DNA of 63,410 nt, the filler included, from Collodictyon triciliatum (Eukaryota), in assembly GCA_043381765.1 (NCBI GenBank). It is 23 parts of 23 records of this genome, joined end to end, with 100 filler letters (N's around TTAATTAATTAA, not from the genome) between each part and the next. Parts side by side here need not be neighbours in the genome. Positions count along the whole stretch, not along the records: positions 28,217 to 30,932 come from JBHJMP010008404.1; 22 more parts are not named here. The stretch is one strand, 5' to 3'. The translations under genes and the position numbers were made by a program. Under the pieces are notes generated by a model. That model did no database searches and was not told the DNA's origin. It worked only from the letters and a program-made list of their open reading frames with translations. Shown piece by piece: positions 29,325 to 30,305 of the stretch. How positions within the stretch are numbered: the first letter of the stretch is position 1; each line of letters begins with the position of its first letter.

Positions 29325-29342
29325 TCCGAAAAGGAAGAACAT
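29325..29342 (+). repeat. Target-site duplication, left copy (right copy 29861-29878)
   Basis: Exact 18-nt match on both sides of the element. Confidence 0.92.
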
Positions 29343-29860
29343 TTTTTTTCTTCCATTCAACTTTTGTGCAGGACCGAGGGGGGGGTGTTGGCTTTGGTTC
29401 GCTAGCCATCGGTTGTATGGACGCTACTTGTCGGCGGAGGAGCAGTCGGTGCTCAGGATTGCATCCTGCGGTTTGGCCTGTGGCCTGGGTGTTACAAAGG
29501 GGTGTCTGGGGGCACGGGGGTTTTCCAAGAAGGGCAGACGTGGAATAGAGCGGGGACAATTCTGTGGGGTGTGTTTTTGTGGGGTCGAAGCTCGGCGTAG
29601 ATATGGCATCTCATTCCTCCCTCAAGGAAGCACTCTTCTGGTGACGTCATTTTCTTCGAAAGTTGTGGGGTGTGCTCCGTTGTCCGGCGAAGCACACCCC
29701 GTCTGCCCTGGATTGGGTATAACTGAGGGCACAGGAGGAGGGCTCAGGGAATGCGTGATACAGGGCCGGAATCACACACACCGCGCACCCTGTGGGGTTC
29801 GAACCACGTTCGCGCACGTCAGACGCTGTCCCATGCCAGCTGGACTACAACGTCTGCCCC
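29343..29860 (-). mobile_element. Full-length 518-bp non-autonomous retroelement (SINE-like): tRNA-like head, structured body, LINE-A tail, A-rich end
   Basis: Flanked by an exact 18-bp direct repeat TCCGAAAAGGAAGAACAT (29325-29342 and 29861-29878). Pol III A and B boxes sit at the 5' end, the body is shared with 41931-42187, and the tail is shared with 91-232. Confidence 0.92.
29785..29854 (-). promoter_or_regulatory. tRNA-derived head with internal Pol III promoter
   Basis: A box TAGTCCAGCTGG (29836-29847), D-stem GTCC/GGAC, B box GGTTCGAACCC (29795-29805), T-stem GTGG/CCAC. Acceptor and anticodon arms are degenerate, so this is not a functional tRNA. Confidence 0.8.
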
Positions 29861-30305
29861 TCCGAAAAGGAAGAACATAGACAGGCGCTGTTGGGAAGCA
29901 AAAGCAGCACCCGCAACTTCACCCGCCTCGGCCGAATTCCAAGCCCAACCAAACCCTGTGCTTTTGCTTCGATTCGAACCCGCCTCAAACGCTGGCAAAA
30001 TTGGCCGAGGCAGTCACAACCCACACGCTTCACCTGTCACGCTGCTTTCACTGAATGAATATCATGTCTTGTTCTTGTTCTTGTTCTTGTTCTTCCGCTT
30101 CACCGTCAAGGTCGATCAGCACTGTTTGTCCGATTTGTCATGTGCACGGCACCGTATCTTCTTCCTCGCCCACGACTCTCGCCTCTTCTGGTTTCCACCG
30201 ATCACCACCTTCTCCGCACTCTGTCTCTTTTTGCAAACCTGAAGAATACGAGGGAAACGCGTCCATCCTTGCAGTTTCCTCACTCTCTTTGCGATTCCCC
30301 TTCTT

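Follow-up and report, generated by a model that had tools for sequence, protein, structure and literature searches.

A 518-base-pair (bp) insert on the minus strand (29343-29860) of a 63,410-nucleotide (nt) stretch of DNA from Collodictyon triciliatum (GenBank assembly GCA_043381765.1), referred to here as the window, has the make-up of a short interspersed element (SINE). We consider it quite likely that the insert is one copy of a multi-copy, transfer RNA (tRNA)-derived SINE family that would be transcribed by RNA polymerase III (Pol III) and mobilised by an L1-like long interspersed element (LINE) via target-primed reverse transcription. A Pol III SINE moved in this manner had been proposed in a first-pass annotation of this DNA, and the proposal is now supported by a non-random head, a LINE-like tail, an exact duplication, the presence of other copies, and junctions in complementary DNA (cDNA). 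The copy is well-formed and was probably active recently. Although the kind of element is ordinary, the family may be new.

Boundaries of the element

The window joins 23 pieces in descending length (2,725 to 2,706 bp, with a last piece of 1,457 bp) through spacers of the form N44-TTAATTAATTAA-N44 (e.g. 2726-2825, 28117-28216, and 30933-31032); in published work this linker string serves as a generic spacer between joined contigs. As these are 23 separate contigs, any feature running across a linker would be an artefact, and adjacency over linkers is meaningless. The SINE and both of its duplications are contained in a single contig (28217-30932, record JBHJMP010008404.1), and the guanine-plus-cytosine (GC) content of the element is 57.5%, against 40% in the remainder of this contig.

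The sequence TCCGAAAAGGAAGAACAT flanks the element at 29325-29342 and 29861-29878 as a direct duplication, identical at 18 of 18 positions and the only exact direct repeat of such length in the contig outside low-complexity sequence. Read along the minus strand, the order is ...CT, ATGTTCTTCCTTTTCGGA, GGGGCAGACG ... GAAGAAAAAAA, ATGTTCTTCCTTTTCGGA, CGATT... The 5′ start of the element is GGGGCAGAC, possibly with one A in front, as the edge of the duplication is ambiguous by 1 nt and the A beside GGGG could be element sequence. Since an A precedes GGGG at both cDNA 5′ junctions (see below), the true start of the element may lie one base further upstream, in which case the duplication may be 17 bp long. 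No TTTT run occurs within the 518 nt; the next one downstream sits in the 3′ duplication. The first-pass annotation had described a 518-bp minus-strand element with an A box, a B box, and D and T stems, free of TTTT until the duplication, with an A-rich end and an exact 18-bp duplication, and every one of these features is present (Table 1).

Several properties place the insert among SINEs: it is short (below ~700 bp) and non-coding, it carries a duplication and an A-rich 3′ end, its tail is homologous to the 3′ end of a LINE of the same genome, and its A and B boxes and cloverleaf would constitute an internal promoter for Pol III, of small-RNA origin.

The tRNA-like head

Under relaxed settings, ARAGORN folds the head into a cloverleaf with a 4-bp D stem (GTCC/GGAC), a 10-nt D loop, a T arm, an anticodon stem with 4 of 5 pairs and a 7-nt loop (CT-GAC-GT), and an acceptor stem with 5 of 7 pairs. 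This is the sole relaxed call on either strand of the 63 kilobases, and shuffling the 120-nt head 2000 times with its dinucleotides preserved yielded no call at all. With TRGYNNANNNGG and GGTTCGANNCC as the A- and B-box consensus sequences, respectively, the B-box consensus has a single match on the two strands of the window, and TRGYNNANNNGG followed after 20-50 nt by a B box likewise occurs once. From the first base of the element it is 6 nt to the tRNA-like part and 13 nt to the A box, and Pol III acting on type-2 promoters starts at about the latter distance upstream of the A box. Taken together, the head reads as a genuine, if degenerate, Pol III promoter module of the tRNA type. Rfam gave no match in the window at gathering score, and its matches to ASpks, SOX2OT, and sR38 over the element (expectation value E ≤10) were dismissed as meaningless.

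A body shared with a second copy

Behind the head lies a body that recurs in a second, partial copy of the family (copy 2): element 109-364 is 92.6% identical to 41930-42187. The body has no match among LINE proteins, and the open reading frames (ORFs) of the element have none in Pfam. A hairpin in the body was found as a self-complementary match and appears in the predicted fold as well, and the same sequence is present in copy 2. Compared with shuffles, the predicted fold of the whole element has a z of -0.79.

A tail derived from a LINE 3′ end

That the tail is homologous to the 3′ end of a LINE, as claimed by the first-pass annotation, is borne out by an alignment between the element and the first contig of the window, where the 3′ end of a LINE that we call LINE-B is found. 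Element 368-475 matches window 88-204 with 80% identity (E 1e-25), and a gapped alignment extends the homology to the 3′ end (element 368-518 against window 88-244). The tail corresponds to the last ~30 codons, the stop codon, and the entire 3′ untranslated region (UTR) of LINE-B, i.e. ~90 nt of degraded sequence from the 3′ part of the ORF2 coding region, a conserved stop codon, and a ~59-nt 3′ UTR. The frame of the SINE is disrupted relative to that of LINE-B (HPGHRPNRRMQS followed by a stop, versus DPGYRPNRRMPLLITDYF), with the position of the stop codon retained. A third tail, at 17384-17480, has the last ~70 nt in common with that of the element and ends in a long (GAAAAAAAA)n-like run. 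A 17-nt block of the 3′ UTR, GCGAACCAAAGCCAACA, is invariant in all three tails, a set of sequences too small for covariation. A degenerate, A-rich duplication around the third tail is possible, and unconvincing.

The nature of these LINEs was traced through their proteins. Across 141 stop-to-stop ORFs of at least 90 amino acids (aa) in the window, scanned with Pfam in sets of 13, 76, and 52, no RVT_1 or endonuclease domain was found; the ORF at 46935-47627 (minus strand) gave a sub-threshold zf-RVT match (22.9 bits, with a cut-off of 27.5). A HMMER search with this ORF, belonging to what we call LINE-A, against 1.84 billion representatives retrieved 13 proteins at E ≤0.001, six of which were covered by a Pfam scan. 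All three long relatives (1226, 1275, and 1243 aa) carry Exo_endo_phos and RVT_1 domains and match LINE-A through their C-termini, and three short ones have zf-RVT above the cut-off. P0011, a long relative, matches human LINE-1 ORF2p (residues 3-871, E 3e-57). The domains of these relatives, together with the match to human L1, identify 46836-47810 as the 3′ end of an L1-like LINE. Close relatives of LINE-A, with up to 92% identity, were found as metagenome proteins only. A weak blastx match to the LINE-A C-terminus (E 0.02-0.06) lies at 39749-39808 (plus strand), on the opposite strand of the contig that holds copy 2, and may be another decayed LINE-A 3′ fragment.

LINE-B is related to LINE-A through P0014, a protein of 94 aa that is 92% identical (47/51) to the translation of window 3-185 (E 1e-32) and 34% identical to residues 136-223 of the LINE-A ORF (pairwise E 1e-12). 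Because P0014 matches both, window 1-244 can be taken as the 3′ end of a second, related LINE. Its reverse transcriptase is deduced through its relatives, as just its 3′ end is present in the window. LINE-B is the tail donor and the presumed partner of the SINE. An exact 10-bp direct repeat, CCTCGCCTTG, stands on either side of the LINE-B end (60-69 and 283-292). A reading of window 70-282 as a short element with this repeat as its duplication was dropped, as 3-185 is LINE ORF2 coding sequence that reaches the contig start; with its first copy within that coding sequence, the repeat is probably due to chance.

Proposed mobilisation and the choice of partner

In the mechanism that we propose, Pol III, guided by the internal A and B boxes, would start at or 1 nt before GGGGCA, pass through the element in the absence of a T4 stop, and terminate in flanking DNA; this step is suggested by the sequence and is consistent with the cDNA adaptor junctions described below. 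The 3′ 151 nt of the resulting SINE RNA would mimic the end of LINE-B, and through this mimicry the LINE-B endonuclease and reverse transcriptase would use the SINE RNA as a template. Target-primed reverse transcription at a staggered nick would then leave the A-rich 3′ end and the 18-bp duplication. These hallmarks of the process, like the homology of the tail, are seen directly; the process itself, and recognition by the machinery of LINE-B or another L1-like element, are what they point to. What this machinery recognises may be the tail or merely the A-rich end.

This last point bears on an alternative in which the SINE is the same and its driver is not: LINE-A, or any L1-like element, would act via the A-rich end in the relaxed manner of L1, leaving the LINE-B-like tail as a historical relic. 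The relatives of both LINE-A and LINE-B are L1-like in architecture, L1 partners typically need poly(A) only, and an 18-bp duplication is compatible with L1-type integration. Copy 2, despite its different tail, likewise finishes with an A run, and the last 18 nt of the element resemble the 3′ terminus of LINE-A (5 of 300 shuffles score equally). This resemblance, however, is short and A-rich, and the target site is unlike the TT/AAAA consensus. Moreover, 151 nt of the LINE-B 3′ end have been kept at 80% identity, and such retention, together with the invariant UTR block, suggests selection for recognition. We therefore regard a driver acting through the A-rich end as distinctly unlikely, and retain LINE-B as the presumed partner.

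Copies and transcripts in public data

Nineteen public runs from 14 studies contain 5-8% of the sampled words of the contig, and four of these (X1, X2, X3, and X17) were compared with the window over 28900-30300. Run X2, consisting of DNA and labelled as a freshwater metagenome, has 18 contigs over this region. One of them (record 9) matches the unique flank at 29086-29231 with one mismatch, which places this organism, or a very close one, in the X2 sample. Record 15 (367 nt) matches 29671-29854, joining head and body (element 7-190), and extends by 183 nt that do not resemble this flank; record 16 (393 nt) matches 29794-29861, from element position 1, and extends by 325 nt that do not resemble it either. 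The direction of these overhangs was set from records 6 and 12, in which the unaligned lengths equal the loose ends given. Records 15 and 16 represent further copies in genomic DNA that share the 5′ boundary of the element.

Run X17, coded as a single organism, has 316 contigs in this region, of which 63 are at least 99% alike, 132 are 95-99% alike, 94 are 90-95% alike, and 27 are below 90%. Their depth fills 12 bins across 29323-29886 and is zero in 18 flank bins. Among the loose ends listed, those behind both 29861 and 29863 read ...GGTATCAACGCAGAGTACATGGG once reverse-complemented, and ten contigs enter a T run before 29342, i.e. an A run longer than the seven As of this element. The SMART template-switching oligo holds the GGTATCAACGCAGAGTACATGGG string, and the oligo-dT primer shares its 5′ part (Table 1 of PMC8579666); this match of adaptor strings marks X17 as a SMART cDNA library. 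Its molecules would accordingly have their 5′ end at, or 1-2 nt before, the first G of the element and their 3′ end in an A run longer than that of this copy.

Taken together, the copies comprise two DNA contigs with the same 5′ boundary, 316 cDNA contigs confined to the element, and one partial copy in the window. Where the first-pass annotation had envisaged further copies with the same 5′ boundary and duplications of their own, the boundary recurs in two different flanks and no second duplication was seen; transcripts starting at the predicted start, which it had suggested looking for, are matched by the X17 adaptor junctions, with both ends of the element represented. Its view of the insertion as fairly recent is reasonable, given an intact duplication and a divergence of ~2% from the X17 majority (nine listed substitutions and 1-2 indels in 518 nt). 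No run contig was found joined across the empty site.

Other collections were searched with short strings from the element. A head 21-mer had no match in public metagenome contigs, and body and head 24-mers had none in genome contigs and viral contigs (four scans). The sole match of a tail 21-mer in metagenome contigs is to a 62%-GC contig, alike over just 21-29 nt, and was set aside as chance. Four element strings had no match in searchable full-text literature.

The transcripts are also where a second alternative has to be weighed, namely that the insert is a non-autonomous LINE-B derivative or a retroposed RNA polymerase II (Pol II) transcript, with the tRNA-like 5′ end carried along as a passenger instead of acting as a Pol III promoter. 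Oligo-dT priming of the cDNA library favours polyadenylated Pol II RNA, the tRNA model scores below threshold, and the contigs of the metatranscriptome X3 lack the head. Against this stand an A box that fits and a B box that is perfect, at tRNA spacing and exactly 13 nt from the 5′ end, the absence of T4 from 518 nt, and a 5′ boundary that stays the same across independent copies and adaptor-joined cDNA, which together make a passenger head highly improbable and favour a Pol III SINE. Hardly any credence can be given to a one-off chimeric retrocopy (a tRNA-like RNA joined to others by template switching) or an assembly chimera with no family behind it, despite the single complete copy in the window and the lack of copies in three collections (metagenome, genome, and viral), since the body is common to copy 2, X2 record 15 joins head and body in another flank, and 316 variant X17 contigs span head, body, and tail.

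Several observations weigh against a Pol III-transcribed SINE family with LINE-B as its partner. At default settings ARAGORN calls no tRNA anywhere in the window, and the Rfam tRNA model is unreported at E ≤10 on 801 nt and on the 101-nt head. No parent tRNA was recognised for the head, and GAC is an unusual valine anticodon in eukaryotes. A single full copy bearing a duplication has been seen, LINE-B is known from its 244-nt 3′ end alone, and the predicted fold of the tail is no better than those of shuffles (z -0.56). As for the public runs, X1 has no contig aligned to 28900-30300, and the 19 contigs of X3 cover 29367-29748 (element 113-494), leaving the head uncovered. The evidence from runs consists of assembled contigs, from which neither the ends nor the levels of RNA can strictly be read, and the details of the comparison are those among the 24 of 354 pieces and 14 of 48 loose ends listed.

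Table 1. Coordinates of the SINE, its parts, and related sequences in the window
Feature	Position (strand)	Element position	Remarks
SINE	29343-29860 (-)	1-518	518 bp
5′ target-site duplication	29861-29878 (-)		ATGTTCTTCCTTTTCGGA on the element strand; exact match with 29325-29342
5′ leader	29855-29860 (-)		GGGGCA, 6 nt, before the tRNA-like part
tRNA-like cloverleaf	29785-29854 (-)	7-76	degenerate, 70 nt; relaxed ARAGORN label 'Val GAC'
A box (predicted)	29836-29847 (-)	14-25	TAGTCCAGCTGG
B box (predicted)	29795-29805 (-)	56-66	GGTTCGAACCC
Body	29494-29784 (-)	77-367	family-specific, non-coding
Hairpin in body	29667-29700 (-)	161-194	13-bp stem
LINE-B-derived tail	29343-29493 (-)	368-518	151 nt
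A-rich 3′ end	29343-29353 (-)		GAAGAAAAAAA; contains seven As
3′ target-site duplication	29325-29342 (-)		contains the first TTTT past the element
Substitutions relative to X17 majority	29421, 29440, 29443, 29451, 29551, 29620, 29625, 29702, 29817
Copy 2	41837-42187 (-)		body homologous to element 109-364; 5′ part lost at contig end
LINE-A-like 3′ fragment	41697-41836 (-)		begins directly after the A run of copy 2
LINE-A	46836-47810 (-)		ORF2 C-terminal zf-RVT region; stop 46932-46934; ~95-nt 3′ UTR ending TTGAATAAAAAGAAAAAA
LINE-B 3′ end	1-244 (+)		last 61 ORF2 codons 3-185; stop 186-188; 3′ UTR to ~244
Same tail, strongly 5′-truncated	17384-17480 (+)		3′ UTR only; long A-rich end

One body with two tails

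Copy 2 departs from the element after position 364 and continues into a ~95-nt tail of its own, ending AGAATCAGAAAAAAA. Judging from these two copies, the SINE family is modular, with one body and two tails. The LINE-A-like fragment that follows copy 2 starts at residue 206-207 of the LINE-A ORF, and in a protein alignment the LINE-B homology in the element starts at the codon aligned with LINE-A residues 206-210. The junction in copy 2 could be a nested insertion, a 5′-truncated LINE that landed in an A run, or the trace of a template switch; it is known from one truncated locus, which is insufficient to choose among these origins. A reverse transcriptase that changed its template from LINE RNA to SINE RNA would leave just such an arrangement, and a passage of PMC7245038 names template switching as a route to chimeric SINEs. 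That the family swaps tails at a single fixed position, drawing on two L1-like LINE lineages related to each other, is a speculation that we hold to be rather unlikely. If real and recurrent, such exchange would show how SINEs gain new partners, and would imply that, in a lineage (possibly of protists) without described SINEs, L1-like LINEs recognise 3′ ends in a sequence-specific way.

Other contents of the window

The host DNA is AT-rich and microsatellite-rich (window GC 38.9%), and its genes are spliced. Most contigs begin or end in microsatellites, in which A-rich units of 4-14 nt are perfectly repeated (e.g. 2585-2725, 8275-8373, 14117-14251, and 42288-42435), and these contig ends are probably the reason for the fragmentation of the assembly into ~2.7-kb pieces. 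Four more N blocks lie within contigs (12947-13432, 38394-39080, 55233-55684, and 62476-62575).

Host gene fragments were found at 39948-41263, 56811-58330, and 61185-61853 on the minus strand and at 45100-46743 on the plus strand. The genes represented in the window include one for a PLOD-type glycosyltransferase, interrupted by an intron of ~110-135 nt, and one for a TrmE/MnmE GTPase, spread over several exons. A TKL-like protein kinase ORF is among the host gene fragments, an O-FucT fragment is among the Pfam matches of the window ORFs, and a 548-aa membrane-protein-like ORF is without detectable relatives. For two long ORFs of the window, a word-based search returned no relatives. Two GC-rich contigs contain long imperfect tandem arrays, at 9396-11104 (period 69-72 nt, ~25 copies) and 52041-53012 (period 54 nt, ~18 copies), which leave frames open on both strands (ORFs of 826 aa and 730 aa). 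These two ORFs have no Pfam match, and the arrays may be repetitive coding sequence or satellites.

Comparison with known SINEs

The closest counterparts are the tRNA-derived SINEs with LINE tails (Repbase class SINE2). Like these, the element consists of a head, a body, and a tail, with predicted internal A and B boxes, a tail from a partner LINE, and a duplication, and it resembles those of their families that recombine heads, bodies, and tails. At 518 bp, however, it lies at the long end of the SINE range, and besides UTR sequence its tail holds ~90 nt of former ORF2 coding sequence. Classic tail-sharing pairs of SINEs and LINEs involve L2, CR1, or RTE LINEs, whereas the partner of this element looks L1-like.

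A second comparison is with L1-mobilised SINEs, such as Alu, B1, and many plant SINEs, with which the element shares the inferred L1-like architecture of its partner, an A-rich 3′ end, and a duplication (15-20 bp in L1-mobilised SINEs). These generally lack a LINE-derived tail and depend on poly(A), whereas the element carries 151 nt of a LINE 3′ end. The heads of Alu and B1, furthermore, are derived from 7SL and not from tRNA, according to a passage of PMC7245038, which describes a design like that of the element as the most common SINE class.

Our understanding of SINEs is unchanged by an element of such textbook design, and its interest comes mainly from an uncharacterised host genome, that of a freshwater-associated eukaryote. 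If the family is undescribed, this genome gains a well-defined and probably still active SINE/LINE pair, useful in repeat-masking a fragmented, microsatellite-rich assembly and as a presence/absence marker for phylogenetic and population studies. With its one body and two tails, the family would also be a naturally occurring case of SINEs that evolve as modules. In this it is like the conserved-body superfamilies (CORE, V, Deu, Meta, UCON3, and others), with the element and copy 2 sharing one body, itself assigned to none of these superfamilies, and differing in their tails; a shared body with different tails is a pattern that PMC7245038 reports for hagfish families.

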